Assembly: GCA_973895155.1 (NCBI GenBank)
Contig: OZ316894.1
Location: forward strand, 27,024,340 to 27,088,339
Source of the DNA: Marsupella aquatica
Taxonomy: Eukaryota; Plantae; Marchantiophyta
Length of the DNA stretch: 64,000 bases
Direction: 5' to 3'
In this document: positions 16,980 to 57,746 of the stretch, piece by piece
How the letters are laid out: each line of letters begins with the position of its first letter
Position numbering within the stretch: the first letter of the stretch is position 1
Notes under the pieces: generated by a model
The model's input: only the letters and a program-made list of their open reading frames with translations
Databases searched by the model: none
What the model was told of the DNA's origin: nothing
Program-made: the position numbers and the translations under genes

Positions 16980-17465
16980 TAGATTTATTACAAAACATAG
17001 CTACGTGTCTCTAGATCTAGTTCCCCTACAATTGTTTCTAGTTGAACCAAGGTTGATGGGTAGGGACAGTACATGGGTTTGTGCGTGCATAGACTTTGTG
17101 GATCTTCCTCGAAGTGGTGGATTTCATTTGTGCCTATCACCATAGTAACCGGATATCTGGACTCAAATGCATTTTAGCATGTTGAGCAATGGATGTTAAT
17201 TACTTGGTGTTATTGACACTGTACACCAGATTTATTACTGTACATGTCTATGTGCCTCTGGATCTAGTTCCCTACAATTCTTTCTAGTTGAACCCAAGGT
17301 TGACAAGTAGGGACAGTGGGTTCATGTGTGCATAGACATTGTGAATTTTCCCGAGGAAGTGGCGGATTTCATTCGCGCCAATCACCATAGCACCCGAATA
17401 TCCGGACTCAAATGCATTTTAGCATTCTTGGTGATGAATGTTAATTACTTGGTGTTATTGACACT
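16980..17465. repeat. Diverged ~245-bp tandem duplication
   Basis: Two copies of agatttatta...gatctagttccc...ggactcaaatgcattttagcat...ttattgacact; a 27-bp tandem pair lies just upstream. Confidence 0.8.
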
Positions 17466-17632: not shown

Positions 17633-20600
17633 ATGTCTTCCAAGCCTATGGCGATGCCAACATTCTATTTTATCCCACCACTTGTGGTGACGACATTGTG
17701 TCAAGCGCGACATTCAGAATATCTTCAGCACAATGGGCTTGCAGATTTTGTTTTGGGAGTTCGTTGGGACACTAAGAGTCATTCTAAGTCTGACATGATA
17801 GATTTCATCCGGAACTTTGACAGTGAACAATCTGAAACATGGGTTTGTGGGGGAAGAATAGACTTGAGTTTGGATTCTATCAAGAAGACATTCAAGTTGC
17901 AAGGGTCAGGGGAGCCATTTGAGCAAAAAGCAGTTTGATATAATCCAAGGTCATTCGCAAGGATTAAAAGGAACATCAATGGTTCTTACTCATTGCAATA
18001 TTGCAAAGATTCCCTAATCAGAGAGAGGCTAGAGTTTCAATTGGGGGCTCTTCACTTTAAGGGGAGCAGGGCCGATGTGTCTTTGTGCCAGATAAAGCAA
18101 GTTGAAGAACAAGTAGTAGGAAGAATTGGGGAGAATATCTTGGCGGGAGACTGATTGACCTCCTCTGCAGAGCCCGGAAACAAATCTCCGAAGGTAACAT
18201 GACTTGCACTTACAATTTTGGATCCCATCTGCAAATTCTGTTGAGTGAGAAGTCCCCTTCAATTGTGTCTTTGCCAAGGCCACAAGTATTCCATTGGAAA
18301 ACATCTACTCAAGTGGGTGTGGAGCATCATGGAGTGGAAAACCACGGGATGGAGGAGAACTGCACAGGACAAAAACATCTCACAATGCATCTGCAAATTG
18401 TGAACGACGATGATGCAATGTCAGGACATGCCAAAGGAACTATTGTTTCTAGTGTGCATGAGGGTGATCCATGTAGCAGTGGAGGACTTCTCGGGCTATT
18501 CTCAACTAGTGGAGCAGAGCCGCAAGGTCAACAAGATGGTTCTTTTGTGAACGGACACCAAGATGGTTCTTTGTTCAATCGAGCTTGTGACAATGAGATG
18601 GTGACAAAGGTTAGGATAATCCATGAAGATCATGCAACGTCCATGAAGACATTGAGTCTTCAAGAGACAGAACCTTTGTCGGGGGGTAAAGAACATGAAA
18701 TATCAGGGAAGACATTGGGCAAAGCGGAAGCAACGCCTGGAACAGAGGATAGAGAACAGGAAAAATTGAAGACAAAATTTGGTATCGAGTTGACAACAAC
18801 TGGTACAGAGTTGCTGGAGCACTCCGACATATTTACACTAAAGAATGTATTCCCCTTGAGCATTTGAGAAGCTTCAAAAATAGTCAGATCTTGTTGTACA
18901 TCATGCCTGTGCTTGATGGAGGTTGTAGGTGAGTTGAAAATAGAGAAAGAGCGCCAGAAAGACTGGAATGAGAAGATGACAACCACCTTGGAGTTACAGA
19001 CAGAGAGGAACGAAACAATACTGACCAACTTGAGGATGCAAGTAGAGGCAAACAACACAATAGGTGTCAAGTTGGAGCTACTCCTACAGAGGAATGAAAT
19101 GATGGTGACCACCTTGGCCGCAGTTCGTAGGGATGTGGATACTTTGAAAGACAAGTATGAAAGTGTTGTCGAGGAAGTCCGAGTTGAGCTTCAGGTATTT
19201 ATTTGGATCAACCTTGGGTAACTTAGCTCATGATTCTCTCCCTTCCCCTCCTCCTCCAAAGGATTGTTTTCTTAAATGTCTTATTAAATAGTTGGTTTAA
19301 TTTGCACCGCTCGATGGAGTGGTGCACAAAATTTTTGGGATTTTTCCATTGGTTTTGTCCCGCACTCACAGGCTAGGAGACAGATGCATTGTTTTAACAA
19401 TGTTTGGGCCTTGTCTTCTCTCACTAGCTATCAGATTTGGTAAAAGGTGGGACTGATTTGTTGTTTGCTGCAAGTCATTGTGAATATACATATTGTGGTG
19501 GAGAAATATCATTTCCGTTAATTGGATGGTTGTATTTGCAGTCTAAATTGGATCACTATAGAAAAAGGCGGGTGGAGATTGGAACAGGTAAAGAGAATTT
19601 GATAGATGAGAATGAAGGAGCTCCTGTGGAGGTGGCCAACCAGCAGATCATGGCGCCTGTATTGTTGCCAAAGCAGGCATCCTCCCAACCAGTGTATGGT
19701 ATGTAGTGCTCACCAATGTCATAGTTCAACTCATATGTAGTCTTACAGTTTGACCAAAATTGCACTAGAACTAGCATTGATTAGTTCAGATTGATAGTGT
19801 ATAGAGTAGTTTCAGACTCCTAGGTCTTTGTATGTGCTGTTGATGGAGAATTGAAGTCTCTAATGTGGTGTTTTTTTGTGACAAAGGTGAGCACAGAGGT
19901 TAATATGCTCAACAGAGGAATTACTACTAGCAAAATGCAACAATCATCAAATGAAGTCCAACACCTAATTCATCCGGAAGAACAGAGATTAGTTGAGCTT
20001 CCAGCCCCACAGAGTGAGAATTACAAAGGCATTTGTGATATGGGGAAGAACTTAGGGAGAAAATGAATTATAGATTTGCTAAATCCTCCTTCTCGGTCCC
20101 TAATCACCCCGTTCCAATCCAAAGACAAAGCAGAGGAGGGCAATCTAGCAACTTCGAGTGCCAAGGTGAGGTGGTCCGCAGGAAACTTCATTGTTTTTAA
20201 TCATTGGTGACAACAACATCTATCTTGTACAGTATGGAAGATGTACTGTATTTTGTAATGTTTGCAATCCTTGCTGGAGTATTACAAATTGGATGTCTTT
20301 GCAGGGCACAGGGAAGGAGGATACGTCCAGCCCGTCATCTAAGAGGTTGAGGCTGCATCAAGATTGTATTGGAATACAAAATTCCAAATTGATCACCCAG
20401 GCAGTCATGAAAGAAGGCCCCAATGGTCTAATACGTGTTCGTAGGGCAACTAAAAGGTGGTCTAAAGAGGAAACAAATTGTCTCAAACAGGCAGTCCGCA
20501 GGCAAGTAGAGAACCTATGACTTATCAATCAAAATGCATTGACGTAATATCTTACCTAGCTGGTATTAATTGGTGTTTTTCTCTAAGAACAAGAGGTTTT

Positions 20601-20847
20601 CTAAGCCAAGGTTAATTTCAGGTTTGGACCAGGCAAGTGGAGTCGAATTCTTGCTGCCGAGGGTGCACACTTCATTGACCGGTCTGAAGTAAGTCTTCTA
20701 TGGTTATATCCTGCTTTTTGTATTACTGTATTTACCCTTGCACACAAGACAAATTGCATGCTCATCTATCATGTTTTATTGACTTTGACACAGATTGATC
20801 TGAAAGACAAGTGGCGAAACCTTCAAACAAAAGATTTAAAGGATTAA
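17633..20847 (+). pseudogene. Spliced gene: N-terminal transposon-related domain, coiled coil, C-terminal telobox (TRF-like) Myb domain
   Basis: Introns 20502-20621 (GC-AG) and 20689-20793 give RRATKRWSKEETNCLKQAVRR-FGPGKWSRILAAEGAHFIDRSE-IDLKDKWRNL. LKDKWRN is the telobox signature. Coiled coil at 18913-19194; several stops and frameshifts in exon 1. Confidence 0.8.
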
Positions 20848-22153: not shown

Positions 22154-24029
22154 AGGAGCTTTAGGCTGCTTTCCCTCGGCTTCGGGACTCGAGGCTCCTA
22201 CATACATTCAAACCCCCGGCTCGTGTTCCGGCCTCCTTCTTTCCTTGGCTCTGATAAAAGGGTTTTCCCTTGTAAGTCGGCTTGGGCCGACTTCTGGAGC
22301 AGTGTTCAGTACCGGTGCCGTTGCCGTTGCTATTCTCTTTTCCTTCTCCAACAATTTCAGCAGATTCTGCATGCTTGGTTGCTGCATCGGCAAGTCTTCC
22401 GTCCTTGGCCTAAACACCTGGTCGATTGTAGGACTGTCGGGCTGGTTGGGTTTCTCTGTTGCCGGCCTTTGTTTCGGAACCTCCTCTGGTGCCCTTGCCT
22501 GCAGGGGAAGTACCGGGGCAAAGATCTGACTTCGGGCATACCGGCACAACAGCGGCATGTGATAACCAAGCCAAGACACGCTTCCCTTGCCAATAACCTG
22601 TTGTTCCTCCTTCAAGATCTTCTTTAGTTGGGTGAGGAGGTACCCGTTGTAGTCCCGGCTTGGGTCTGGTCTCTCCGCCAGGTAGACTTGTGCCTTGCCA
22701 ATCTCTAGCCTCGGCAAGTTGCAGTGCATGGTTACCCACAAGAAATCGATTATCTCTCCTATGTGCGGGTTGGTGCAGGTGTTCCGAAAGAAGCCATTCT
22801 TCATTGATGGCCCTGGGAACGATCGGAACTCCTTGTCTGGCAAGGTCTTCCGGGTATCTACTTTGGTCTTATTGCCCATCGGTAAGCCAAACACTTTGGC
22901 AATCACTCGGGGAGTGAGATAGAAATCCTTCCCATACACCCTTGTGGAATTGGTCTCGGGCTCCCAAGATCCCACAAATTCTAATAAGTCTGAATCCGAC
23001 ACCTCCGGCTTCAGCCATGGTAATTTCATGAAGGCTTCCAAGTCGGATCCGGCCATGAAGCCTTGGTACTTCCAAGTCTGCATAGCCGTAAAGCATGCAT
23101 CCTCTTCACGTGCAAAGTGTAATTGCACTTCCTCGGGGAGGGTCGCAGCCCAGCCTTTCCAGGTGTCATCTCTTGTCGGAACGACATTGATGGGATCGAC
23201 CTCCTCTTCTTTGGCTTCTTCCTGCCTCCTGCTCCCTTGCTTGGCTGGCTTCCTTCGTGCCGCTGACCTCGTTCTCTTCGCAGGGGTGGTCTCTTCGTTG
23301 GCATTCCCTTTCCTTTTCATAGCTGCTGCCGTGGATATTTCTCCGAGGACGGTTGCCTTCGTCCACCCCTCCGTGCTACCCTTCAACTCCCAGTGTATGT
23401 CGTTGCAGCGGTTGATGGCTTCCCGGATGCCGACTATTCTGTTCTCACAAAATAGAAGGTCATCAAGTTTGTCGCCAGTAGGTGTCCACAGGAATTCAAC
23501 CGTGATGAGTTCTCCTCCTAAGAAGGCAGACTTCTACAGCTCCCACAGTCGAGCGAGCTCCTACTGTTCTCGAGCGGCTCTTTCCGATTCTTCATCCTCG
23601 TAGGTCCCAATGTACTCAGTTGCCCGTTCTAATAGGCATCCCCAAAAATGAGCAGCTTGATTGACGTTGCTCATACCCTTCTTTGAATTGATAGTTGGTA
23701 TCTGCTCCCGCCCCAAGTGCTTGCCTAAGCAGCTGATAGTAGTTGGCTTCACGTAGTTGTATGCTTAGTTCGTGCTTGCAAATGAGCACCCCCCTCCTGC
23801 CTGGTCTTCCTTCCCGTTAGTTACCCATAGCCGCCGGTACTTAGCGCGCCCTAACCCTAATCGTGTTCCCTCTCCCGACGTCCTTACTTCCGGCCTCGGC
23901 TCGGGTTCCATAGTTACCCTCAATTGTTTATATTTTTCTTGTTTTTTGTTACTATACTAATGTGTTTCTAGGGTACACTCTTGTTTTTACCATTTAAACT
24001 GGCCTAGTGATTCCTGGCTAGGCATCACA
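22154..24029 (-). mobile_element. Truncated, diverged LTR of the same gypsy family (first ~1.9 kb including part of the LTR ORF)
   Basis: Begins TGTGATGCCTAG at 24029 on the minus strand, like 42210. ORFs 23561..23752 and 22208..23386 align with the 1220-aa LTR protein; homology stops near 22154. Confidence 0.93.
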
Positions 24030-42209: not shown

Positions 42210-45200
42210 TGTGATGCCTAGACAGGAATCACTCGGCCGGTTAAGTGGGTAAAGCAGGAAGGCACCCTAGGAACACCTTAGTATAGTGACAAAACAAGGA
42301 AAATATAAACAATTAGGGGCAACCATGGAACCCGGGCAGAGGCCGGAGGTAAGGCTGAGGGTGAAAAACCGATTAGGGTTAGGACGCGTTAAGCGTCGGC
42401 GGCTAGGAAGGATCAACGGGAAGAAGGACCGGCAGAGGAGAGGGGTAAGGAGCGCTTGCAGGAGATGGTGGCTCATTTGCGAGCACGAACTAGGCAGACG
42501 ACTACGGGAGGCCAACTACTGTCAGCTGCTTAGGCAAGCACTCAGGGAGAGAGTAGATACCGACGATCAACCTAAGGAGGGTATGAGCAACGTCAATCAA
42601 GCGGCACATTTCTGGGGATGCCTGTTCGAACGGGCAACTGAGTACATCAAGACTTACGAGGACGAGGAGTCAGAAAGGGCAGCTCGAGAACGGCAGGAGC
42701 TCGCTCGATTGTGGGAGCTGCAGAAGACGGCTTTCTTAGGAGGCGAACTCATCAAGGACGAGTTCCTGTGGACGCCTACTTCCAATCAACTCGACGATCT
42801 TCTGTTTTGCAAAGACAGCGTCGTCGGCATCCGAGAGGCCATCAAGAACTGCAACGACATACACTGGGAATTAAAGGGTAGCACGGAAAGGTGGACCCAG
42901 GCAACGGTGCTAGGAGAAACCTCCACGGCAGCAGAGATGAAGAGGAAGGGAGCCGTCAACGATGAAGCCACCCCGGCAAAAAGAACGAGGTCGGCGGCAC
43001 CAAAGAAGCCAGCCGAGCAGCATAGCAGGAGGCAGGGAGAAGCCGAAGAGGAGGAGGTCGATCCCATCAAGGCCATTCCAACCAGGGATGACACCTGGAA
43101 GGGCTGGGCGGCAACCCTACCGGTGGAGGTGCAACTACATTTTGCACGGGAGGAGGATGCATGCTTTACGGCCATGCAGACCAAGAAGTACCAAGGCTTC
43201 ATGGCCGGATCCGGCTTGGAGGCCTTTGTAAGATTACCATGGCTGAAGCCGGAGGTACCGGAGTCAGACCTATTAGAATTCGTGGGGTCATGGGAACCCG
43301 AGACCAATTGCACGAGGATATATGGGAAGGATTTCTATCTTACTCCCAAGGTGATTGCCGAAGTGTTTGGCTTGCCGATGGGCAATAAGACCAAAGTTGA
43401 TACCAGGAAGACCTTGCCTGACAAGGAGTTCCGGTCGTTCCCCGGGCCATCAACGAAGAATGGCTTCTTCCGGAACACCTGCACCAACCCGCACATAGGA
43501 GAGATGATCGACTTCTTGCGGGTGACCATGCATTGTAACTTGCCGAGGGCAGAGATCGGCAAGGCACAGGTCTATCTGGCAGAAAGGCCAGACCCAAGCC
43601 GGGACTACAACGGGTACCTCCTCAACCAATTGAAGAAGATCTTAAAGGAGGAGCAGCAGGTAATCGGCATGGGGAGCGTGTCGCGGCTTGGCTATCACAT
43701 GCCGCTGTTGTGCCGGTATGCCAGAGGTCAGACTTTTGCCCCGGTACTTCCCCTGCAGGTAAGGGCACCCGAGGAAGCTCCAACGCCGAGGCCGTTGGCT
43801 GAGAAGCCTCAACCACCTGTTAGTCCTACGATCGAGCAGGTGTTTAGGCCCAGGAAGGAAGACTTGCCGATGCAGCAACCAGGCATGCAGAGTCTGCTGA
43901 AACTACTGGAGAAAGAAAAGAGATCGGCATCGGCAAAAACAACGGCAACGGCAACAATGCAGGACACTACTACAGAGGTAGGCCTACACTGGCTCACAAG
44001 AGAAAACCCCTTTGCTGGAGACAAGGAGAGAATCAGGCCGGAATCCAAGCCAGGTGTTCGAATGTACGTGGGAACCTCAAGCTCCGAATCTGAGGCAGAA
44101 TTGCCTGAAGCTCCTACCAACAAAGAGGAGAGGGAGAAGCCGGACGTCCAAGAGGTAGAGGAGGCAGTGGAGGACTGCAGCCATGATAATTCCGGCTATG
44201 GGTCGGACCATCACGTTCCAGGAGTAAGGACCTGTGGCCGGTTTGTCCCCACACTTCCAAGGGTAGTGCGAGGGGACCCCAACCAGCAGAGTAGCCCTGA
44301 GTCTCCCCCACCAGATGTTGCTCCCCCGAGCTTCGACGGCATAAAACAGACGGTGCAGGAATTTCAGGAGCGAATCAAGCAGGAGGAAGAGGCCGCCCTG
44401 GCTAAGGAAAAGGATTTACCAGGAGGAGATTGGCCGGAGGACATCAGGCGGCTAGCCGAAAAAGGAAGCAAACCTCTAGCCACGATTGAAGAGATCCGCA
44501 GGACGGCTTGGGAGCAGAGGCCACGATGGGCAATGCCGATCACTTCTACTTACTCCACCTACGCTAAGAATAGAGCCATGGAGTATGGTGAGATGTGTGG
44601 GGAACTTGCGCTCGGCATCTTTGGAGAGGAGTTGGAGGTAGGACCCTTTTTCCATAGGGAGCAGTTGGAGAAGCACCAATTAGAAGAAGCGGTGGCTTTA
44701 GAGAGAAGCAAGAAGGACGAGGTCATTCGGCGGCTTAGGAGGATGGAAGCCGAGATTGAAGATCTAAGGGCGGCCAAGAAAGCCCAAGATGAACTGCGGA
44801 TTAAACGACATGAGCTGAACATCATGCAGGGGCAGTTGGACGCCGCGCAGGCTGATAATCAGAATATCAAGGATAAACTGACTCAGACGCAGGAAGAGTT
44901 GGCCGACACGATCAAAGAAAGGGAAAAGTGGAAGCAAGAGCTGAAGAATACAGAGGAGGCCCACATAACAGCCAACAGCCGGGCCATGGCGGAGACCCAA
45001 AGAAAGGAATGGGCGTTGAAAGGGGAGCTCGAGAAAATCCGCGGAGCCCTTGAGCAGAAGGAGGTCGAGTTAGGGAAATCCTATCAAGGGATTATGGCGC
45101 TGCAGCAGGAGCTTGCGTCCCTGACGACCAGCTTCAAGGCCGACCTAAGGGAGAAGGACGAGATGCTCGAACAGACTTACACCAAGATGAACCAGATGGA

Positions 45201-46869
45201 GTCTATCATCATTGCAGAGCTCGACAAGGAGCTAAGAGCAACCCAGGAGGAGAAGGCTACCTTAAAGAAGGAATTGGAGGAAGCCCACAGGGAGCAGGAG
45301 GAGGCCAAAAACGAGCTGGAGGGGGCACGTAAGGACCTGGATGAAACCCAAGAGGAGTTGGAGGAAATCACGAGGAAGATGGAGAACCTACAGCGGCGGG
45401 CCGACAACCAAACAGAGCGGCTGAAGAAACAAGCCGCAGTATTTAAATGCTTAGCTGCAGCAGGTCCATCTCCTGTTGGGACAAACCAGTTACCAGGGGT
45501 GGTAATTGCCGAAGGACAAGCAGCGCCACCTGCACCAGTGCCGGAAGCAAGTGGGAAGGGGAAGGGACCAGCTGCCGAGCCACCAACGAAGAAGAAGCGG
45601 AAACCTTCAGGGTCAAGGAGTAATACGACTTCACAGGCCGTGGTGATCAAGGAGGTAGACCCAGCACCGACCCCAGACAGGGTCACGGCTAAGGATCCAA
45701 CTACCCTAGGGGAAGGGGAAGCTGAAGCCGTGGGAGTGGCTGAAGCCGAAGCCGTGGGAGTGGTTGAGGCCAAAGCCGTGGGTATTGCCGAGGCCGGTGT
45801 CGAGGCTGAAGCCGAAGGTGGACCCAGTCAGGCCGATGGAGAGTTGACTCGGTCAAGGGCAGGTAATCTGTCAGTAGGCGGGCCAACGGCAGTGGCTGAG
45901 GAGGAAGTGTTGGGGGCGTCCATTGAGGATCCACCACCGGTGTCGTGACGGTGCAAGGGCGCCGTTCCTTTTAGGGAGGGCGGACGTGGAGGGAGGAGGC
46001 GTGAGTGGGCAGGGCGGGCACGGATCTCCACGTTTAGGATTAGGATCCGAACCAGGAGCGGCCCTGACACTTAGCTTAGTGGGATTGCGGTCCCACTGGT
46101 AGGAGCAACACTTGTGCTCCTGCCTTGCTGTACATAGGTAGATCCGGGCAAGTAGATTACTGTTAAGTAGATTAGGCTTACGATGCAAAGAATGGCGGAT
46201 CCACTACCAGGATAAGTACCTGGGCAGCGGGGAGCTCAGGGCCTCTTCTTTAGCAAGTTTTTAGTTTGCACCAGCCGGGCTGGGATCAAGTAGTACGAGA
46301 AGCTCTCGGTTAGTCATACAGTGACCCTTGTGTATATTCATGTTTCCTCATGCCTAAGAGCTGAATAGAGTTGGCCTCACGGCTTAGTTCGCAGAACTTG
46401 TGTATGAGATGTACTGTTTGTATGGCAAGTGCATGGTATGACTCAGTCAGAATGAGTCATTTTGCTATTTGTGTGTCGCATTAACTTGTGTGAAGAGTGC
46501 CCACATCAACAGAAGGAAGGAAAGTAAGCAGGGGAGTGAGAGTTGGATGTGTCGAGCTGAGAGAGGTCTTAGCGGCTTAACCAAGCCTATTGGGGATCAT
46601 TCCGGCGGCGGAATCCAAACATACCTAACAAGACGGAGGGGAAGACAGGGGAAGACAGGGGAAGGCCTATATTAGGCCGGCTACGTATCTCATGACCCGA
46701 TGAAGGATCTGTCCAGTATATGTGTGTAAAATGTTAATAGTAGTAGTAGAAGGTTAGCAGCGTCCCATGCCGCTAAGCCGCGGAAACGGCCTCGCCAAGC
46801 ACGAAACCTGCGGGAATCGGCTTGAGCTGGGGGGTTTCTTGGGTTTAGGGAGCCATGGGACGCACCACA
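42210..46869 (+). repeat. 5' LTR (4,660 bp)
   Basis: TGTGATGCC...GCACCACA; direct repeat of 53094-57746. Confidence 0.97.
42286..45948 (+). CDS. LTR-resident ORF, up to 1220 aa: globular transposon-related domain, long coiled coil, acidic/basic tail
   Basis: Uninterrupted ORF wholly inside the 5' LTR. In-frame ATGs at 42325 (ACCATGG) and 42583. NLS-like PPTKKKRK; no hydrophobic transmembrane stretch seen. Confidence 0.85.
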   Translation: MTKQGKYKQLGATMEPGQRPEVRLRVKNRLGLGRVKRRRLGRINGKKDRQRRGVRSACRRWWLICEHELGRRLREANYCQLLRQALRERVDTDDQPKEGMSNVNQAAHFWGCLFERATEYIKTYEDEESERAARERQELARLWELQKTAFLGGELIKDEFLWTPTSNQLDDLLFCKDSVVGIREAIKNCNDIHWELKGSTERWTQATVLGETSTAAEMKRKGAVNDEATPAKRTRSAAPKKPAEQHSRRQGEAEEEEVDPIKAIPTRDDTWKGWAATLPVEVQLHFAREEDACFTAMQTKKYQGFMAGSGLEAFVRLPWLKPEVPESDLLEFVGSWEPETNCTRIYGKDFYLTPKVIAEVFGLPMGNKTKVDTRKTLPDKEFRSFPGPSTKNGFFRNTCTNPHIGEMIDFLRVTMHCNLPRAEIGKAQVYLAERPDPSRDYNGYLLNQLKKILKEEQQVIGMGSVSRLGYHMPLLCRYARGQTFAPVLPLQVRAPEEAPTPRPLAEKPQPPVSPTIEQVFRPRKEDLPMQQPGMQSLLKLLEKEKRSASAKTTATATMQDTTTEVGLHWLTRENPFAGDKERIRPESKPGVRMYVGTSSSESEAELPEAPTNKEEREKPDVQEVEEAVEDCSHDNSGYGSDHHVPGVRTCGRFVPTLPRVVRGDPNQQSSPESPPPDVAPPSFDGIKQTVQEFQERIKQEEEAALAKEKDLPGGDWPEDIRRLAEKGSKPLATIEEIRRTAWEQRPRWAMPITSTYSTYAKNRAMEYGEMCGELALGIFGEELEVGPFFHREQLEKHQLEEAVALERSKKDEVIRRLRRMEAEIEDLRAAKKAQDELRIKRHELNIMQGQLDAAQADNQNIKDKLTQTQEELADTIKEREKWKQELKNTEEAHITANSRAMAETQRKEWALKGELEKIRGALEQKEVELGKSYQGIMALQQELASLTTSFKADLREKDEMLEQTYTKMNQMESIIIAELDKELRATQEEKATLKKELEEAHREQEEAKNELEGARKDLDETQEELEEITRKMENLQRRADNQTERLKKQAAVFKCLAAAGPSPVGTNQLPGVVIAEGQAAPPAPVPEASGKGKGPAAEPPTKKKRKPSGSRSNTTSQAVVIKEVDPAPTPDRVTAKDPTTLGEGEAEAVGVAEAEAVGVVEAKAVGIAEAGVEAEAEGGPSQADGELTRSRAGNLSVGGPTAVAEEEVLGASIEDPPPVS

Positions 46870-46873
46870 TTTT

Positions 46874-46891
46874 TGGCGCTAGATGGAGGGG
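46874..46891 (+). promoter_or_regulatory. Primer-binding site
   Basis: TGGCGCTAGATGGAGGGG, 4 nt after the LTR end; the cognate tRNA was not determined. Confidence 0.75.
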
Positions 46892-46938
46892 GCATTTCTT
46901 AAGCCGTGAGATATGAAGTTAGAACGGAAGCGTAGGTA

Positions 46939-49932
46939 ATGACTGACCTTACGCCGAGGGAAGAAAGAGTGATTCAACGGGAGAGAGCTCGACTGCAGCA
47001 GCTCGCCGGGTGGCATGATACACAGCGACTGAGAGGGGCAGAAAGAGCTGGTAGCTCCGAAACTGGAAGTGGCGTCGAAGAAGACATACCAGAAGAAGAG
47101 TCGGTAAGGAGAAGTGAGTCTCCAACCGACATGGGGGAACCAGAGGCACGGCCAGACGAGAGGCCAGGGACCAGATTGAGCCAGTGGTCGCGCATACATT
47201 ACAAGGCATTTCATGGGAGAGGAGATGAGGATCCGGACGAATGGTTGGATGATTTCGAGGGAACCGCTGCAGCAAATGGAGAATCGGCCATCAAGATGCA
47301 GATTCTTCCCGGCCTGTTCAAGGGTGAGGCTAGGCCTTGGTACAGAGCATTAGATGTGGAAGATCAAGCCATCTGGGATATCTTCAAAACACTCTTTGTT
47401 AAGGAGTTTCGACCCATTGGAACTTCAGAACTAGCAGTGCTGAAGTTGGGACAACTTCGGTTCAAGGAGAACAAATCCTTCAGGAAGTTCTTGCAACGCT
47501 TTCAGAAACTGGTAAGACGTACAAAGACCAATGCATCTGAAGGTATGCAACTTCAATGGTTGGTGAATGCTTTGCCACAGAAGATGAGTTTTGCAATTAG
47601 GAAGGAGAACCCGGAGACCTTAGCCGAAGCAATTAAGGATATTCAATTATACATTAATGCAGATATCACAAGCCGGAAGAAACAGCTTAAGTCTGAGAGT
47701 TCCTCATCAGAGGAGGGATCACCCCATAAGAAAAAAGATAAGAAGAAGAAACATTCCAAGAAGTCTAGAAGTGATAAGTCAAGCTCGGATAGTGGGAGTA
47801 GCAAGAGTGAGTCATCTTCTAGTTCTGAAGAAGAAAAAACTAGGAAAAGGAAGGGCAGAAGGAGAGGGAAGACGAAAGTCAAGATGGAGGCTAAGCCACC
47901 AGATAACATCGTAGCCCTTACCGAGCAACTTAAGGCTATCATTGCAGAGGTAAAACCAAAGAAGAAGGTAGTACAGGAGGATAGCTCTGTATGGTGTGCC
48001 TTATGTTATAAAACCGGACACCATAAAGATGCTTGTCCTAAGCTTAATACTAATCATGTTCGGCATGTGGCCGAGATCAGACCATGTCAGGGAGAAGTAG
48101 AGTACTTTTTGGGAGATGCCGCTGATAGTGTTTTCGGCATCAGTGAGACTGGAGCACGAGACCTATCCAACAGACCTGCATCTCTGTGGTCAGGGTTAAG
48201 GAACAATCCAGGAGAGATGTATCCTCGGATTATTCAGAACCCGTCAGTACCTCCTAGGCCGAATGTGCAAAGATTTGCGGCGTGCTATAATTGTGGTCAA
48301 CCTGGCCATTTTGCTAGAGAATGCCCGAATGCACGCAAACAGGGTGATGGACAACCAGCTCAGCTATGTATGGGATGCCGACAGGAAGGTCATATGCTAG
48401 GGCAATGTCCTACTTGGTTGGCAGGCCTGGCCGCAAATCATAAGCTTTTGCCGATCAAGATCTTACCACCAGGTACTACCCCTGGAGGAGTTCAAATCAA
48501 CCACATCGAACTAGGATGGCAAGAGGATGCCGAGGCAGAGTTCGTACCATCTGATGATGAGGCCGAAGCCCTATCAACCTTCTCAGAGGAGGATTTAGAT
48601 CATGATTGCTACCGGGTCTCTACTCGATCTACCAGAAGGAAGGAAAGGTGGGATGGGCTAGCCAAAAATAAAGGGAAGGTTACGGAGGAAAAGATCGACT
48701 CTTCGTCAACATCAACAGAAGGAGAAGGGAGGGCTCCGGCAATACAGGTAAGCCATGAGCCCACCAGTGAAACCAATCCTTCACAAGATAGCGACTTCAA
48801 TCGAGATCATCCTAAGTTGTTCTACCCCTCTGTTACGGCTAGTGTTAAGGAACAACTAAGAGAATTAGAAACCCTGGAGAATACCGAAGCCATTGCCAAG
48901 GATGTAAAACGAGCAAAAGCATTGTTTGCTTCGGAAGACCCAACAGCTGTGGAGACTAGCGTGGCAAAACTGGCCGAATCCAAGACGGAAACACCACCAG
49001 AAGAGAAGCCGATTGTTCCCTATGACCTGGCTAAAGATGTACTAGAATCTAGAGTCTCGGCAACAGTAGGTCAACTATTGAAAAATAGCCCGTACTTCCG
49101 GAAGCAATTAAGGAAGGCTATTCTCGGCAAGCCGAGATTACCCAAGGTAGCAACCAGATCCGACGTACTAATGATAGAAGAAGATCAAGGAGCCCCAGCA
49201 TTACCATTAATGATTCAAGGAGAATTATTACTACGGGTACCCATCGATGGAGGATCAGGGGTATGTATTATGATTGATTCAACAGCAAAAGGGTGGGGTC
49301 TAACACCGGAGATGACTGGAAGAGTGTTGAACATGGCCAATGGATATCAGGTCATTCCGACGGGAGTGTTAACCGGCATCAAGACAGAGATAGGAGGTAT
49401 CTTCTTTAGCATTAACTATGTAGTAATGAAGCCGGTAAATCCTACGTCATTCCGGCTATTGATTGGTAGGCCATGGCTGTACCTAGCCGAGGTAATAGAA
49501 GATTGGGGTAAAAAGCAGTTCACTTTCGGGACCCCCTCTATCACGGTATCCTGGGACACTAAGGATGACCGTAGGAAAAGCATAAGGGAAGTAGATGGGT
49601 ACGATAGTGGACTGGAGTCAGCCGATGAAGTACGTTGGTTAGAATGCTTCACTAACCTAACCGAAGAAGGTGTCTTTGGACCAGAGGTACCCCCCAGCGG
49701 ATTATGGCAAGAACCAATGGAAGGTGACTTGGAAGAAGAAGACAAAGAGGTCGAGGACTGCTTTACAATAGAATCCACCTTTTTAGCTGCAATTCCGGAG
49801 GAAGTTAAGGATGTAGACCAATTGGATGAAACGGCTAAGTGGGGAGCAGTAGCAGGGACAGTGGATTTTCTGCAGGCGTTGTGGCAGAGCCGACGGGGTC
49901 CACAACGCCATCGATCATCGGCAAGGAATTAA
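46939..49932 (+). CDS. gag: Gag (three CCHC knuckles) plus aspartic protease
   Basis: FHGRGDEDPDEWL, GEARPWY; CALCYKTGHHKDAC, CYNCGQPGHFAREC, CMGCRQEGHMLGQC; PIDGGSG and LLIGRPWL. Confidence 0.93.
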   Translation: MTDLTPREERVIQRERARLQQLAGWHDTQRLRGAERAGSSETGSGVEEDIPEEESVRRSESPTDMGEPEARPDERPGTRLSQWSRIHYKAFHGRGDEDPDEWLDDFEGTAAANGESAIKMQILPGLFKGEARPWYRALDVEDQAIWDIFKTLFVKEFRPIGTSELAVLKLGQLRFKENKSFRKFLQRFQKLVRRTKTNASEGMQLQWLVNALPQKMSFAIRKENPETLAEAIKDIQLYINADITSRKKQLKSESSSSEEGSPHKKKDKKKKHSKKSRSDKSSSDSGSSKSESSSSSEEEKTRKRKGRRRGKTKVKMEAKPPDNIVALTEQLKAIIAEVKPKKKVVQEDSSVWCALCYKTGHHKDACPKLNTNHVRHVAEIRPCQGEVEYFLGDAADSVFGISETGARDLSNRPASLWSGLRNNPGEMYPRIIQNPSVPPRPNVQRFAACYNCGQPGHFARECPNARKQGDGQPAQLCMGCRQEGHMLGQCPTWLAGLAANHKLLPIKILPPGTTPGGVQINHIELGWQEDAEAEFVPSDDEAEALSTFSEEDLDHDCYRVSTRSTRRKERWDGLAKNKGKVTEEKIDSSSTSTEGEGRAPAIQVSHEPTSETNPSQDSDFNRDHPKLFYPSVTASVKEQLRELETLENTEAIAKDVKRAKALFASEDPTAVETSVAKLAESKTETPPEEKPIVPYDLAKDVLESRVSATVGQLLKNSPYFRKQLRKAILGKPRLPKVATRSDVLMIEEDQGAPALPLMIQGELLLRVPIDGGSGVCIMIDSTAKGWGLTPEMTGRVLNMANGYQVIPTGVLTGIKTEIGGIFFSINYVVMKPVNPTSFRLLIGRPWLYLAEVIEDWGKKQFTFGTPSITVSWDTKDDRRKSIREVDGYDSGLESADEVRWLECFTNLTEEGVFGPEVPPSGLWQEPMEGDLEEEDKEVEDCFTIESTFLAAIPEEVKDVDQLDETAKWGAVAGTVDFLQALWQSRRGPQRHRSSARN

Positions 49933-52900
49933 ATACCAAGGGATCGGCATACAAGCCGATTACGAGGGCAGAACAAATTGAGGCCCTATTAGAAGCCGAG
50001 AGAGCACAGCGGCCTAACTCGCAGGAGCAAGAGGTGGATGAGATGGATAGACACGATCCAGAGCCAAGGCAGGAAGGGGAGCCAGCCACTAATTCAAGAC
50101 TGAATAGACCGGTAAGGGGACAATCTATGGACACCAAGGAAGGGACCGACTCGGCTAGTCCAGCCGAGATCCCAGTTTATGGAGGTATGAGATTAGAGAG
50201 ACTGGAAGCCGAACTGGACCCGAATTTGAAGAAGCAGATTAATATGATCCAAGCACGGCAATATCGGAAGCTCGACTTAGGAGAGGGAAGAGAACTGAAC
50301 TTAGGGAGAAACCTAGCACCTGAGCTCGAGAAAGAGATCAGTGACTTATTGATTGAATTTCAGGATGTGTTTGCATGGAGTCACCAAGATCTAAAGGGCG
50401 TAGATCCAACACTAGGGGAACATCGAATTGATCTCATGTTAGGAGCCAAATCATTTCGACAACCAATTCGAAGGATGAACCCGAAGTATTCCCTGCTGGT
50501 CAAAACAGAAATCGACAAACTAGTGGAAGCTGGATTCATCACTCCAGTCCTGCATTCAGACTGGGTGTCTCCAATTGTGATAGTTCCCAAAAAAGCTGGA
50601 CCCGATGGTAAACCCAAGATCCGGGTTTGTCAGGATTACAGGAAGCTGAATGAAGCAACATTAAAAGACCATTTTCCTTTACCGTTTACTGATATGGTAC
50701 TAGACATGGTAGCCAGTCATGAACTATATTCATTCATGGATGGATACTCTGGTTATAACCAAATCAGGATTCGGCAGGAAGACCAAATCAAGACGGCCTT
50801 CATCACGGAATGGGGGATCTATGTCTTCAATCGTATGCCGTTTGGACTCTGCAACGCACCAGCTATGTTCCAACGATTAATGGTGAACATTTTTCATGAT
50901 TACTTGAGAAAGTTCATGGAAATCTTCATTGATGACTTTGCAGTATTCGGGAAGGCATCGAAACATGCTAAATACCTCAGGAAAACCTTCATGAGATGTA
51001 GGGAGGTGGGTCTCAAGTTACACCCAGATAAATGTTTTTTTGCAGTAACCGAGGGGGTGCTACTAGGTCACAAGGTATCAAGGAAGGGCATTGAGATTGA
51101 CAAAGGTAAGCTAGCAGTATGGCTAGATATCATGCAACCTAAGAACATAAAAGATGTAAGATCCTTCTTGGGATGCATTGGTTACTATCGCCGGTTTATC
51201 AAGGATTTTGCCAAGCTGGCTTTACCATTAACCAATATGCTCAAGGCAGGAGCAGACTTCGAACCCACACCCGAACGAGTCACAGCGGTGGTAGAATTGA
51301 AGCAGATGTTAGTAGAGGCCCCAGTCATGATAGCACCGGACTGGAACAAAGATTTTCATGTTTTTGTAGATGTCTCGGGCTTCTGTATTGGCTCAGTACT
51401 AAGTCAGTTGGATGAGAAAGGAAGGGACCATCCCATATACTTCGCAAGCCGTCAGCTTGCCGATGCCGAACGGAACTACTCTACCACGGAAAGAGAAGCA
51501 TTAGGAGTCATTTATTCTTGTAAAAAGTTTAGGCATTATTTACTAGGGTACAAGGTAATCTTTCATACTGATCATGAAAGTTTGAAGTACCTAGTCAATA
51601 AGCCGGACCTTACAGGCAGAGTAGCAAGATGGATTTTGCTATTACAAGAGTTTGACTATGAGCTGAGGATCAAGCCGGGAAAGTTACATGCCAATGCCGA
51701 CTTCTTTTCAAGGATCACAGGTAAACCTGCCACGGATTGCATCGATGATCGATTCCCCGACGAGGAGCTATTCGTTGTGGAAATAGCTGGTACATGGTAC
51801 CCTGAGATTTTACAATTTCTCAGCACTTCCAGATTACAGCCAGGATTAAGCCGAGAGCAAGCCGCAGTCTTTGTGCGGAAGGTCAGACAGTATCAGTGCA
51901 TTAAAGGCATACTGCACAAGCATGGAATCAACGGCACAATTCAAAGGTGTTTGGAAAAGAGAGAGGTAAAACGAGTCCTACGGGCCATGCATGGAGAGGA
52001 GGCCAGAGGACATTTTGCCCCAGTAACCACGTCTAAGAAAATATTAAATGCCGGTTACTGGTGGCCCACCTTGCACAAGGATGTCTATCAGTTTATCAAA
52101 CAATGCGATCCTTGTCAACGAGCGGGAGGACCAAGGGCGTCCACCAGGCATCCACTGCACCCTATTCTACCTCTGGCACCATTCGAGAAGTGGGGTATTG
52201 ATTACATTGGACCTCTGAAACCATTGACCCACCCTCGACGGAACAAGTACATAATCCTGGCTACGGATTATGCAACTAAATGGGTAGAGGCCAGACCAAC
52301 AACGAAGGATGATGCAATTACTACGGCTAGATTCATGTATGAGCAGATCTTCACCAGGTATGGAGCACCCCTAGAATTAGTTAGTGATAGAGGAACCCAT
52401 TTTTTGAATGATATAATTAGTCGTTTAAATGAGCAGTATTTAGTTAAACATAGGCCTACTACTCCCTACCATCCAAAGGCAAACGGGTTGACAGAACGAG
52501 CAAACGGAATCATAGGAAATATATTGAACAAGACAGTAGCTCAGAACAAACTCGATTGGGATGATAAATTGTTTGCTGCTGTTTTTGCTTACAATCTGGC
52601 CTATAAATCCACTACCGGTCATACACCCTTCTTCTTAACCTTTGGACAAGAAGCCCTGGTACCCATGCAACTTGAGATACCGACATTTCAAGTTACAATT
52701 GAGGAAAGAGCCTCAGCGGAGGAGACCCTAAAGGAGCGAGAATATAGGTTAGAAGCTTTAGAGGAAGCGAGAATGATTTCAGCCGAGAGAGTAGAATATA
52801 GACAGAATATCATGAAGCAGCAGTATGATAAAAGGTTAAAAGTAGTTAGTATTCATACCGGTGATCTTGTGTTACTTTATGACAGTAGGTATAGTAGGTT

Positions 52901-53105
52901 TCCAGGGAAGCTTTACACTCGCTGGTTAGGACCCTTTAGAGTAACCATGATGTTCCCCAATGGCTCCGTACAATTGGCCAACATTACGGGAGAGGTATAT
53001 CCAGTTCGCATCCATTATGACCGCCTCAAGAAATACTATATGGACGAAGATGAAGTTGTTCGCGAGGACGCTTCACAATTAAGTGGGGAGCTATGTGATG
53101 CCTAG
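49839..53105 (+). CDS. pol: Pol: reverse transcriptase, RNase H, integrase (-1 frame relative to gag-PR)
   Basis: RVCQDYRKLN, DGYSGYNQI, RMPFGLCNAP, FIDD, FVDVS...EREAL...TDH, HHCC zinc motif, GIDYIGP, SDRG, NGLTER, WLGPF. The stop falls just inside the 3' LTR. Confidence 0.97.
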   Translation: MGSSSRDSGFSAGVVAEPTGSTTPSIIGKELNTKGSAYKPITRAEQIEALLEAERAQRPNSQEQEVDEMDRHDPEPRQEGEPATNSRLNRPVRGQSMDTKEGTDSASPAEIPVYGGMRLERLEAELDPNLKKQINMIQARQYRKLDLGEGRELNLGRNLAPELEKEISDLLIEFQDVFAWSHQDLKGVDPTLGEHRIDLMLGAKSFRQPIRRMNPKYSLLVKTEIDKLVEAGFITPVLHSDWVSPIVIVPKKAGPDGKPKIRVCQDYRKLNEATLKDHFPLPFTDMVLDMVASHELYSFMDGYSGYNQIRIRQEDQIKTAFITEWGIYVFNRMPFGLCNAPAMFQRLMVNIFHDYLRKFMEIFIDDFAVFGKASKHAKYLRKTFMRCREVGLKLHPDKCFFAVTEGVLLGHKVSRKGIEIDKGKLAVWLDIMQPKNIKDVRSFLGCIGYYRRFIKDFAKLALPLTNMLKAGADFEPTPERVTAVVELKQMLVEAPVMIAPDWNKDFHVFVDVSGFCIGSVLSQLDEKGRDHPIYFASRQLADAERNYSTTEREALGVIYSCKKFRHYLLGYKVIFHTDHESLKYLVNKPDLTGRVARWILLLQEFDYELRIKPGKLHANADFFSRITGKPATDCIDDRFPDEELFVVEIAGTWYPEILQFLSTSRLQPGLSREQAAVFVRKVRQYQCIKGILHKHGINGTIQRCLEKREVKRVLRAMHGEEARGHFAPVTTSKKILNAGYWWPTLHKDVYQFIKQCDPCQRAGGPRASTRHPLHPILPLAPFEKWGIDYIGPLKPLTHPRRNKYIILATDYATKWVEARPTTKDDAITTARFMYEQIFTRYGAPLELVSDRGTHFLNDIISRLNEQYLVKHRPTTPYHPKANGLTERANGIIGNILNKTVAQNKLDWDDKLFAAVFAYNLAYKSTTGHTPFFLTFGQEALVPMQLEIPTFQVTIEERASAEETLKEREYRLEALEEARMISAERVEYRQNIMKQQYDKRLKVVSIHTGDLVLLYDSRYSRFPGKLYTRWLGPFRVTMMFPNGSVQLANITGEVYPVRIHYDRLKKYYMDEDEVVREDASQLSGELCDA
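49863..49922 (+). promoter_or_regulatory. Putative -1 ribosomal frameshift signal (G_GAT_TTT plus stem-loop/pseudoknot)
   Basis: Heptamer at 49863-49869 in the gag frame, 5-nt spacer, 10-bp stem GGCGTTGTGG/CCACAACGCC (49875-49884/49900-49909). Loop GCCGA can pair with TCGGC at 49918-49922. Confidence 0.75.
53081..53090 (+). promoter_or_regulatory. Polypurine tract
   Basis: AAGTGGGGAG, 3 nt before the 3' LTR. Confidence 0.75.
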
Positions 53106-56100
53106 ACAGGAATCACTCGGCCGGTTAAGTGGGTAAAGCAGGAAGGCACCCTAGGAACACCTTAGTATAGTGACAAAACAAGGAAAATATAAACAATTAG
53201 GGGCAACCATGGAACCCGGGCAGAGGCCGGAGGTAAGGCTGAGGGTGAAAAACCGATTAGGGTTAGGACGCGTTAAGCGTCGGCGGCTAGGAAGGATCAA
53301 CGGGAAGAAGGACCGGCAGAGGAGAGGGGTAAGGAGCGCTTGCAGGAGATGGTGGCTCATTTGCGAGCACGAACTAGGCAGACGACTACGGGAGGCCAAC
53401 TACTGTCAGCTGCTTAGGCAAGCACTCGGGGAGAGAGTAGATACCGACGATCAACCTAAGGAGGGTATGAGCAACGTCAATCAAGCGGCACATTTCTGGG
53501 GATGCCTGTTCGAACGGGCAACTGAGTACATCAAGACTTACGAGGACGAGGAGTCAGAAAGGGCAGCTCGAGAACGGCAGGAGCTCGCTCGATTGTGGGA
53601 GCTGCAGAAGATGGCTTTCTTAGGAGGCGAACTCATCAAGGACGAGTTCCTGTGGACGCCTACTTCCAATCAACTCGACGATCTTCTGTTTTGCAAAGAC
53701 AGCGTCGTCGGCATCCGAGAGGCCATCAAGAACTGCAACGACATACACTGGGAATTAAAGGGTAGCACGGAAAGGTGGACCCGGGCAACGGTGCTAGGAG
53801 AAACCTCCACGGCAGCAGAGATGAAGAGGAAGGGAGCCGTCAACGATGAAGCCACCCCTGCAAAAAGAACGAGGTAGGCGGCACCAAAGAAGCCAGCCGA
53901 GCAGCATAGCAGGAGGCAGGGAGAAGCCGAAGAGGAGGAGGTCGATCCCATCAAGGCCATTCCAACCAGGGATGACACCTGGAAGGGCTGGGCGGCAACC
54001 CTACCGGTGGAGGTGCAACTACATTTTGCACGGGAGGAGGATGAATGCTTTACGGCCATGCAGACCAAGAAGTACCAAGGCTTCATGGCCGGATCCGGCT
54101 TGGAGGCCTTTGTAAGATTACCATGGCTGAAGCCGGAGGTACCGGAGTCAGACCTATTAGAATTCGTGGGGTCATGGGAACCCGAGACCAATTGCACGAG
54201 GATATATGGGAAGGATTTCTATCTTACTCCCAAGGTGATTGCCGAAGTGTTTGGCTTGCCGATGGGCAATAAGACCAAAGTTGATACCAGGAAGACCTTG
54301 CCTGACAAGGAGTTCCGGTCGTTCCCCGGGCCATCAACGAAGAATGGCTTCTTCCGGAACACCTGCACCAACCCGCACATAGGAGAGATGATCGACTTCT
54401 TGCGGGTGACCATGCATTGTAACTTGCCGAGGGCAGAGATCGGCAAGGCACAGGTCTATCTGGCAGAAAGGCCAGACCCAAGCCGGGACTACAACGGGTA
54501 CCTCCTCAACCAATTGAAGAAGATCTTAAAGGAGGAGCAGCAGGTAATCGGCATGGGGAGCGTGTCGCGGCTTGGCTATCACATGCCGCTGTTGTGCCGG
54601 TATGCCAGAGGTCAGACTTTTGCCCCGGTACTTCCCCTGCAGGTAAGGGCACCCGAGGAAGCTCCAACGCCGAGGCCGTTGGCTAAGAAGCCTCAACCAC
54701 CTGTTAGTCCTACGATCGAGCAGGTGTTTAGGCCCAGGAAGGAAGACTTGCCGATGCAGCAACCAGGCATGCAGAGTCTGCTGAAACTACTGGAGAAAGA
54801 AAAGAGATCGGCATCGGCAAAAACAACGGCAACGGCAACAATGCAGGACACTACTACAGAGGTAGGCCTACACCGGCTCACAAGAGAAAACCCCTTTGCT
54901 GGAGACAAGGAGAGAATCAGGCCGGAATCCAAGCCAGGTGTTCGAATGTACGTGGGAACCTCAAGCTCCGAATCTGAGGCAGAATTGCCTGAAGCTCCTA
55001 CCAACGAAGAGGAGAGGGAGAAGCCGGACGTCCAAGAGGTAGAGGAGGCAGTGGAGGACTGCAGCCATGATAATTCCGGCTATGGGTCGGACCATCACGT
55101 TCCAGGAGTAAGGACCTGTGGCCGGTTTTTCCCCACACTTCCAAGGGTAGTGCGAGGGGACCCCAACCAGCAGAGTAGCCCTGAGTCTCCCCCACCAGAT
55201 GTTGCTCCCCCGAGCTTCGACGGCATAAAACAGACGGTGCAGGAATTTCAGGAGCGAATCAAGCAGGAGGAAGAGGCCGCCCTGGCTAAGGAAAAGGATT
55301 TACCAGGAGGAGATTGGCGGGAGGACATCAGGCGGCTAGCCGAAAAAGGAAGCAAACCTCTAGCCACGATTGAAGAGATCCGCAGGACGGCTTGGGAGCA
55401 GAGGCCACGATGGGCAATGCCGATCACTTCTACTTACTCCACCTACGCTAAGAATAGAGCCATGGAGTATGGTGAGATGTGTGGGGAACTTGCGCTCGGC
55501 ATCTTTGGAGAGGAGTTGGAGGTAGGACCCTTTTTCCATAGGGAGCAGTTGGAGAAGCACCAATTAGAAGAAGCGGTGGCTTTAGAGAGAAGCAAGAAGG
55601 ACGAGGTCATTCGGCGGCTTAGGAGGATGGAAGCCGAGATTGAAGATCTAAGGGCGGCCAAGAAAGCCCAAGATGAACTGCGGATTAAACGACATGAGCT
55701 GAACATCATGCAGGGGCAGTTGGACGCCGCGCAGGTTGATAATCAGAATATCAAGGATAAACTGACTCAGACGCAGGAAGAGTTGGCCGACACGATCAAA
55801 GAAAGGGAAAAGTGGAAGCAAGAGCTGAAGAATACAGAGGAGGCCCACATAACAGCCAACAGCCGGGCCATGGCGGAGACCCAAAGAAAGGAATGGGCGT
55901 TGAAAGGGGAGCTCGAGAAAATCCGCGGAGCCCTTGAGCAGAAGGAGGTCGAGTTAGGGAAATCCTATCAAGGGATTATGGCGCTGCAGCAGGAGCTTGC
56001 GTCCCTGACGACCAGCTTCAAGGCCGACCTAAGGGAGAAGGACGAGATGCTCGAACAGACTTACGCCAAGATGAACCAGATGGAGTCTGTCATCATTGCA

Positions 56101-57746
56101 GAGCTCGACAAGGAGCTAAGAGCAACCCAGGAGGAGAAGGCTACCTTAAAGAAGGAATTGGAGGAAGCCCACAGGGAGCAGGAGGAGGCCAAAAACGAGC
56201 TGGAGGGGGCACGTAAGGACCTGGATGAAACCCAAGAGGAGTTGGAGGAAATCACGAGGAAGATGGAGAACCTACAGCGGCGGGCCGACAACCAAACAGA
56301 GCGGCTGAAGAAACAAGCCGCAGTATTTAAATGCTTAGCTGCAGCAGGTCCATCTCCTGTTGGGACAAACCAGTTACCAGGGGTGGTAATTGCCGAAGGA
56401 CAAGCCGCGCCACCTGCACCAGTGCCGGAAGTAAGTGGGAAGGGGAAGGGACCAGCTGCCAAGCCACCAACGAAGAAGAAGCGGAAACCTTCAGGGTCAA
56501 GGAGTAATACGACTTCACAGGCCGTGGTGATCAAGGAGGTAGACCCAGCACCGACCCCAGACAGGGTCACGGCTAAGGATCCAACTACCCTAGGGGAAGG
56601 GGAAGCCGAAGCCGTGGGAGTGGCTGAGGCCGAAGCCGTGGGAGTGGCTGAGGCCGAAGCCGTGGGTATTGCCGAGGCCGGTGTCGAGGCTGAAGCCGAA
56701 GGTGGACCCAGTCAGGCCGATGGAGAGTTGACTCGGTCAAGGGCAGGTAATCTGTCAGTAGGCGGGCCAACGGCAGTGGCTGAGGAGGAAGTGTTGGGGG
56801 CGTCCATTGAGGATCCACCACCGGTGTCGTGACGGTGCAAGGGCGCCGTTCCTTTTAGGGAGGGCGGACGTGGAGGGAGGAGGCGTGAGTGGGCAGGGCG
56901 GGCACGGATCTCCACGTTTAGGATTAGGATCCGAACCAGGAGCGGCCCTGACACTTAGCTTAGTGGGATTGCGGTCCCACTGGTAGGAGCAACACTTGTG
57001 CTCCTGCCTTGCTGTACATAGGTAGATTCGGGCAAGTAGATTACTGTTAAGTAGATTAGGCTTACGATGCAAAGAATGGCGGATCCACTACCAGGATAAG
57101 TACCTGGGCAGCGGGGAGCTCAGGGCCTCTTCTTTAGCAAGTTTTTAGTTTGCACCAGCCGGGCTGGGATCAAGTAGTACGAGAAGCTCTCGGTTAGTCA
57201 TACAGTGACCCTTGTGTATATTCATGTTTCCTCATGCCTAAGAGCTGAATAGAGTTGGCCTCACGGCTTAGTTCGCAGAACTTGTGTATGAGATGTACTG
57301 TTTGTATGGCAAGTGCATGGTATGACTCAGTCAGAATGAGTCATTTTGCTATTTGTGTGTCGCATTAACTTGTGTGAAGAGTGCCCACATCAACAGAAGG
57401 AAGGAAAGTAAGCAGGGGAGTGAGAGTTGGATGTGTCGAGCTGAGAGAGGTCTTAGCGGCTTAACCAAAGGATCATTCCGGCAGTGGGAATCCAAACATA
57501 CCTAACAAGACGGAGGGGAAGACAGGGGAAGACAGGGGAAGGCCTATATTAGGCCGGCTACGTATCTCATGACCCGATGAAGGATCTGTCCAGTATATGT
57601 GTGTAAAATGTTAATAGTAGTAGTAGAAGGTTAGCAGCGTCCCATGCCGCTAAGCCGCGGAAACGGCCTCGCCAAGCACGAAACCTGCGGGAATCGGCTT
57701 GAGCTGGGGGGTTTCTTGGGTTTAGGGAGCCATGGGACGCACCACA
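53094..57746 (+). repeat. 3' LTR (4,653 bp)
   Basis: Copy of 42210-46869 at offset 10,884, with about two dozen differences counted by eye. Confidence 0.97.
53170..56832 (+). pseudogene. 3'-LTR copy of the LTR ORF with one nonsense mutation
   Basis: TCG>TAG at 53875-53877; otherwise colinear with 42286..45948. Confidence 0.9.

Follow-up and report, generated by a model that had tools for sequence, protein, structure and literature searches.

VANC in Arabidopsis, which binds short motifs in its element and removes DNA methylation, is the main established case of sequence-specific anti-silencing by a transposon. The role of the extra ORFs of gypsy lineages, whose positions as listed in the literature are the 5' or 3' parts of the element (PMC6317226), is largely open. 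VANC is a protein of VANDAL Mu-like transposons (DUF1985, PF09331) that binds motifs within tandem repeats (PMC5735166), possesses coiled coils, is structurally homologous to MAIN and has been called dicot-specific (PMC13547354). The related PMD (PF10536) occurs in gypsy elements (PMD-A), in fusions of MULE elements (PMD-C) and in host genes, and was reported to move both ways between hosts and elements (PMC5418596). The PMD of MAIL1 resembles the DUF1985 domain of VANC, and the host proteins MAIN/MAIL (MAIN, MAIL1, MAIL2) counter H3K27me3 at promoters with telobox motifs bound by TRB proteins (10.1101/2024.09.27.615353), which recruit PRC2 at telobox sites (PMC12616469). In bryophytes H3K27me3 also marks transposons (10.1101/2022.10.24.513474). 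The telobox motif of Myb domains, LKDKWR(N/T), has been described along with the TRFL families (PMC4924339, PMC7037163). The Myb of TRFL family 2, which is devoid of the Myb-extension, showed no specific binding of telomeric DNA in vitro (PMC4924339); TRFL7 does associate with telomeric DNA, and an iDDR motif precedes its Myb (10.64898/2026.01.29.702503).

Here the window, meaning the whole stretch of 64,000 nucleotides of Marsupella aquatica DNA that was analysed, is compared with these systems. The locus offers two proteins: a VANC-like protein encoded in the LTRs of a young retroelement, under strong selection, and a predicted fusion of a related domain with a telobox Myb. Given the reported opposition of PMD proteins and Polycomb at TRB/telobox promoters (10.1101/2024.09.27.615353), a single protein carrying the two modules would connect these pathways directly, and the locus bears on the host or element origin of the VANC/PMD fold. 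Among the titles and abstract openings covered, few of them from subscription journals, none described a PMD- or VANC-like domain fused to a telobox Myb.

Predicted Myb gene and LTR-encoded protein

A six-exon ab initio model (Table 1) predicts a protein of 772 aa composed of the shared domain, a low-complexity linker, a coiled coil, a second linker and a Myb with the LKDKWRN motif. The five predicted introns all have canonical, in-phase ends in a single frame, one of them being GC-AG; this intron (20502-20621) interrupts the Myb domain and could help to identify the TRFL subgroup that donated it. The frame of exon 1 meets a stop seven codons past its donor, and no start of their own is evident for the Myb exons. 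The preliminary description had proposed that a TRF-like Myb domain is spliced onto the front part, and it had read through a TGA at 17936. Both this codon and the peptides it quoted are present in the sequence, and the predicted Myb exons have canonical junctions and end in LKDKWRN at 20847, the splicing itself being a prediction.

The telobox motif is located in the single C-terminal Myb of the model and is followed by a stop eight codons downstream, so that the model has no Myb-extension. In these traits the predicted protein is like TRFL family 2 (TRFL3/6/8, TRFL10 and TRFL7 groups); it differs by its transposon-type front domain, by the lack of an iDDR motif (Trp among acidic residues) before the Myb, as no Trp occurs in the 60 preceding residues, and by a probable existence in several copies. 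Taken alone, the exon-4 piece matched Pfam Myb_DNA-binding below the cut-off (E=0.015), and the single Myb exon pieces, which are too short, had no match among solved TRF structures.

Table 1. Features of the two genes and lesions of the Myb-gene copy (positions in the window; X1-X4, contigs of four public runs)
Feature	Position	Strand	Remarks
Exon 1, intronless	17633..19194	+	Shared domain, low-complexity linker, coiled coil; about 520 codons; donor CAG/GTATTT at 19194
Shared domain of Myb gene, about 185 aa	17684..18244	+	Putatively VANC/DUF1985/PMD-like; 118.5 and 107 bits with two profiles
Predicted coiled coil, model residues 471-523	19042..19194	+	Heptad heuristic
Predicted exon 2	19542..19698	+	In-phase AG/GT junctions
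Predicted exon 3	19885..20165	+	Ab initio model
Predicted exon 4, ends in Myb helix 1	20305..20501	+	GC donor
Predicted exon 5, Myb helix 2	20622..20688	+	Gene model
Predicted exon 6, telobox helix with LKDKWRN, then stop	20794..20847	+	Gene model; without Myb-extension
Young Ty3/gypsy element	42210..57746	+	TG...CA LTRs of 4.66 kb, 5-bp TSD GCTTC, gag and pol between
1003-aa ORF within 5' LTR, ATG at 42937	42937..45948	+	Shared domain, acidic linker, long coiled coil
Shared domain, 5' LTR ORF	43135..43740	+	Purifying selection (dN/dS 0.10 vs the older copy)
Shared domain, 3' LTR copy	54019..54624	+	
Older truncated LTR copy	22154..24029	-	Covers the first 1.9 kb at 82% identity; domain frame, at about 22517-23122, remains open
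Premature TGA	17936..17938	+	Sense codon in X1, X3, X4 contigs (X4 500.6/538.1 depth); X2 without cover
One-base frameshift	about 18107	+	Extra base in X1-X4 contigs; X3 2200/6524 depth; X2 via paralog contig only
Premature TGA	18865..18867	+	Sense codon in contigs of 4/4 runs
Exon-3 acceptor lost; TGA in exon 3	19884; 20064	+	Both intact in contigs of 4/4 runs

The second protein belongs to a Ty3/gypsy element whose LTRs (42210-46869 and 53094-57746) show 25 mismatches in 4652 positions and enclose gag, RT, RNase H and integrase in gypsy order. Its 1003-codon ORF occupies most of each LTR; the 5' LTR ORF is open, and that of the 3' LTR is interrupted by a stop (53875-53877) some 18 codons past the matching ATG. 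As a Ty3/gypsy extra ORF with a coiled coil, for which a weak Pfam match of coiled-coil type was obtained, it is reminiscent of Athila ORF-1 (PF03078) and Transposase_32 (PF20167), from which it differs by lying inside both LTRs while gag-pol fills the internal part. Comparison of the LTR domain with the older copy gave a dN/dS of 0.10 over 202 codons, indicating that the LTR-encoded shared domain is under purifying selection. The order of parts in exon 1 is that of the LTR ORF (domain, linker, coiled coil) and, as already stated in the preliminary description, linker and coiled coil follow the domain in both proteins, the latter according to a simple heptad score.

Kinship and fold of the shared domain

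That description had aligned the two front domains by eye over some 130 aa. The homology was confirmed but not this length, since the similarity continues past an overlooked frameshift at about 18107 and comprises about 185 aa. A pairwise alignment of the original frame with the LTR ORF gave a weak score of 63, exceeding all of 1000 shuffles (mean 35.9, max 59), and reading through the frameshift raised the score to 89 with 40/178 identical residues (22%; max 46 in 300 shuffles). Profiles were built with relatives from a HMMER search with the LTR domain, which found 20 proteins at E<=0.001, P0007, P0020 and P0022 being dropped as repeat-driven and 17 kept. The profile of the LTR domain and the 17 relatives, excluding the Myb gene, gave the Myb-gene domain 118.5 bits (best of 2000 shuffles, 8.5), and 92.7 bits in the original frame alone. 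A profile of six distant relatives, built without either window protein, gave 107 bits to the Myb-gene domain and 106 to the LTR protein (shuffles <=8.5). With a profile combining the LTR domain and nine closer relatives, the Myb-gene domain still obtained 40 bits (shuffle max 5.6). On these comparisons, the front domain of the Myb gene and the LTR-encoded protein are members of one family. None of the 17 database relatives, many of which are fragments, has a Myb match or motif. Word-index protein searches with the LTR domain or the alignment, which are weak searches, found no match among long proteins and one among shorter ones, and no related locus was detected in metagenome or viral contigs.

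A direct transfer of the module between this LTR family and the telobox factor, with the TTAGGG motifs of the LTRs as targets, is a different matter; the preliminary description had proposed the exchange of one module between a retroelement and a telobox-binding factor and had pointed to TTAGGG-like motifs in the LTRs. Both proteins occur in one window and have domain, linker and coiled coil in common, but their domains are only 22% identical and closer relatives exist elsewhere: six database proteins scored 172, 147, 132, 120, 120 and 117 against the Myb-gene domain, vs 89 for the LTR protein (14 rows). In two trees the Myb-gene domain fell outside the LTR clade, and a topology that forced it together with the LTR copies of the window was worse by 43.5 log units and rejected (AU p=1e-6; a quick tree of 14 rows with long branches). 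TTAGGG at 42373 and TTTAGGG at 46844 do exist as described; over the whole LTR, however, TTAGGG occurs at chance level (5 vs 2.83 expected; 79/500 shuffles reach 5), and an excess in the non-coding LTR parts (4 vs 1.24 expected; 19/500 shuffles) concerns a region picked afterwards. A direct exchange between the retroelement and the Myb gene is therefore very improbable.

At the family level, Pfam returned nothing at E<=1 for the Myb-gene or LTR domain and nothing at E<=0.1 for the 17 relatives, and by the Pfam tests the domain stays outside DUF1985 (PF09331), PMD (PF10536), Athila ORF-1 (PF03078) and Transposase_32 (PF20167). For the LTR domain, the Atlas neighbours, which serve as leads only, were DUF1985 at 0.90 and PMD at 0.88, the latter from a cluster in which 14% of the members are PMD; those of relative P0016 were Athila ORF-1 at 0.89 and Transposase_32 at 0.87. 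These matches shared 138-149 features, and every neighbour named is an accessory domain of plant transposons.

Predicted models of the LTR domain (pLDDT 55) and of relative P0021 (pLDDT 73), which share alignment rows, display the same order of helices and a hairpin. VANC had been named in advance as a candidate from the Atlas neighbours and the literature, and VIA-align ranked the VANC21-DNA structure (9lnk_A) first of 48,161 chains for both models, with modest Z-scores (<8): Z 5.5, rmsd 4.5 and 174/200 residues aligned for P0021, with rank 2 within 1 Z, and Z 4.2, rmsd 5.2 and 156/202 residues for the LTR domain. All other rows listed aligned <=87 residues. Foldseek searches of PDB and BFVD gave no match at E<=0.001, and a profile search of PDB sequences gave none below E 0.46. 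As judged from these models, the shared domain likely has the VANC/PMD fold, and the family looks like the plant transposon accessory domains PMD, DUF1985, Athila ORF-1 and Transposase_32, and structurally like VANC21. The PMD/plant-transposon likeness noted earlier from the sequence is thus upheld by the Atlas leads and the VANC21 match, Pfam membership in PMD being the part that did not hold.

VANC21 (PDB 9lnk) is the best whole-domain structural match of two family members, and VANC also has in common with the proteins described here a coiled coil (predicted here) after the domain and what is probably a transposon setting, with tandem repeats nearby. On the other hand, identity in the structural alignments is 8-12%, the 185 aa or so match only VANC21 residues ~300-529, a C-terminal telobox Myb has not been ascribed to VANC in the literature consulted, one member lies here inside a retrotransposon LTR, and VANC was called dicot-specific (PMC13547354). 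The likeness to PMD proteins extends to the kinds of carrier, PMD occurring in extra ORFs of gypsy elements, in DNA transposons and in host genes (PMC5418596), and to a helix-hairpin-helix core with the LT/S...I...F.L motif, but the PMD fusions described in the sources consulted go to transposase or phosphatase and not to Myb.

Lesions, copies and origin of the Myb gene

The window copy of the Myb gene is a pseudogene with five lesions (TGA 17936, frameshift 18107, TGA 18865, acceptor 19884, TGA 20064). It was compared with contigs of four public runs (X1-X4) from two organisms and two studies, none of them on record as RNA. The ab initio model appears well supported because each of its breaks is open in other runs; as rare variants are lost from contigs, X1-X4 may contain broken copies too. 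Both reading frames, those of the Myb gene and of the LTR ORF, are kept by selection or intact in other samples. Among 12 listed indels (66 more exist), those in exon 1 are a frame-restoring +1 and in-frame changes of +3 and -12; the remaining nine, mostly of lengths not divisible by three, fall in predicted introns or precede the ATG. Fifteen of the 20 best-supported differences listed between the window and X1 are of the C-to-T type in the window copy, 11 of these being at CG or CHG (background 22%; p=3e-5), as in silenced repeats, a pattern indicating that the window copy was methylated while it decayed.

In X1 the main contigs over the Myb gene have a depth of 110-134 vs 18-20 for a diverged paralog (e.g., 35 differences in 358 bases), and a similar gap was observed in X2-X4. 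This suggests several collapsed near-identical copies and one diverged paralog, although contig depth is not a copy number. In addition, contigs of X3 and X4 match only 17738-17773 and then continue with a similar peptide, as a more distant paralog of the domain would.

Altogether, we lean towards the reading that the window holds a dead copy of a probably multi-copy gene combining a transposon domain of VANC/PMD-like fold, a coiled coil and a telobox-type Myb, the product of which would be, by analogy, a sequence-targeted chromatin (anti-silencing) factor. Exon 1 would derive from an intronless transposon accessory ORF of another family branch than the LTR ORF, and this ORF would have become linked, within the DNA itself, to the 3' part of a host TRFL-family-2 gene together with its introns. 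A DNA-level joining is proposed because exon 1 lacks introns and is laid out like the LTR ORF, whereas the Myb is distributed on short, intron-separated exons; the route would be insertion upstream of a host gene or capture by a DNA transposon rather than retroposition. By analogy with VANC, the VANC-like domain may grip DNA, the coiled coil may oligomerise and the Myb may add or change sequence specificity. The product would thereby protect from silencing either telobox-bearing loci or the repeated block to which it belongs, with its transposase-like gene, SNF2 helicase and tandem repeats; the LTR-encoded relative, which has no Myb, would serve its retroelement in the same way. It would work like a VANC/PMD-type factor, yet it falls outside those families by the Pfam tests.

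Alternatively, the plant might have domesticated this fusion, as with MAIN/MAIL, for a role of its own at telomeres or at promoters with teloboxes; the extra copies would then stem from segmental duplication, and that of the window would be a decayed one. This is possible, though we hold it doubtful. The diverged low-depth paralog, found in 4/4 runs and in both organisms over the domain and the Myb exons, fits a host gene equally well; a host gene would also agree with the five introns, with element ends not having been found, with the reported opposition of PMD host proteins to Polycomb at telobox/TRB-bound promoters (10.1101/2024.09.27.615353) and with the two-way movement of PMDs (PMC5418596). 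Against it, the depth suggests several near-identical copies and is shared with the SNF2 gene between high-depth repeats (SNF2 gene 110-138 in X1, the same as the Myb gene; higher values at 2.3-7.6 kb and 13.6-15.6 kb), the window copy decayed at CG/CHG, and the paralog is represented by pieces on different contigs, which need not be fused.

It is also conceivable, albeit improbable, that the Myb exons are a gene fragment lying downstream of an independent transposon ORF, exon 1, the two never having been co-translated. The junctions rest on prediction, exon 1 alone has the entire LTR-ORF layout, and word-index protein searches, which are weak, found no long database protein with both the shared domain and a Myb. 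Against this, the five introns all have canonical, in-phase ends and give one frame, and the X1 depth is uniform between 17.3 and 21.6 kb; the codon at 20064 and the acceptor of exon 3 are intact in 4/4 runs, like the lesion sites of exon 1, the frame of which ends just past its donor, and the Myb exons are without an evident start.

A wider and quite tentative proposal is that the VANC fold is far older and more widespread than the dicot VANDAL elements, being present here in the LTRs of an active Ty3 element and fused by a second mobile element to a captured telobox reader, the resulting transposon-encoded factor opposing silencing at the telobox sites of TRB/PRC2.

Surroundings of the locus

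The window is transposon-rich land-plant DNA with a PPR-DYW gene, a SNF2/RING helicase gene and Harbinger, LINE and Ty3/gypsy elements. A divergent pair with high contig depth in three runs consists of minus-strand ORFs (206-2578) and a plus-strand transposase-like gene (3332-7031); the 3.3-7.0 kb ORFs gave no Pfam match and presumably resemble a Mutator-type transposase, having GCM-like, DDE-like and SWIM-like motifs. The broken SNF2/RING/helicase-C gene (8681-10931) is possibly cargo of the same repeated block as the Myb gene. Tandem arrays at 13395-15365 and 16976-17465, with units of 111, 34 and 18/182 bp and the 18-bp repeats at 14.8-15.4 kb, are candidate binding sites for a VANC-like protein, and a 245-bp doublet of the second array adjoins the Myb gene on its upstream side. 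Around the Myb-gene block no terminal repeats or target duplication were found, nor convincing inverted repeats within 1.5-40 kb. A giant Mutator element with 200-bp TIRs (1741-1940 and 60937-61136) was considered and discarded, as this 98% identical inverted pair corresponds to the 3' end of a LINE and a truncated LINE copy with its own 11-bp target duplication.

The LINE itself (39504-61136; DUF4283, endonuclease, RT) is split by the Ty3 insertion. The PPR-DYW gene (26177-31042) has a tandemly duplicated 5' part (1.2-kb) and a frame break near 30130, and a Harbinger-type pair (36159-38193) comprises DDE_Tnp_4 (+) and a Myb/SANT gene (-) whose Myb type differs from the telobox Myb. TTTAGGG is enriched over the whole window (17 vs 9.55 expected; 0/100 shuffles), with short runs of it (24203-24216, 31667-31687, 41085-41098) flanking the PPR gene and, in one case, lying at the end of LINE ORF1.
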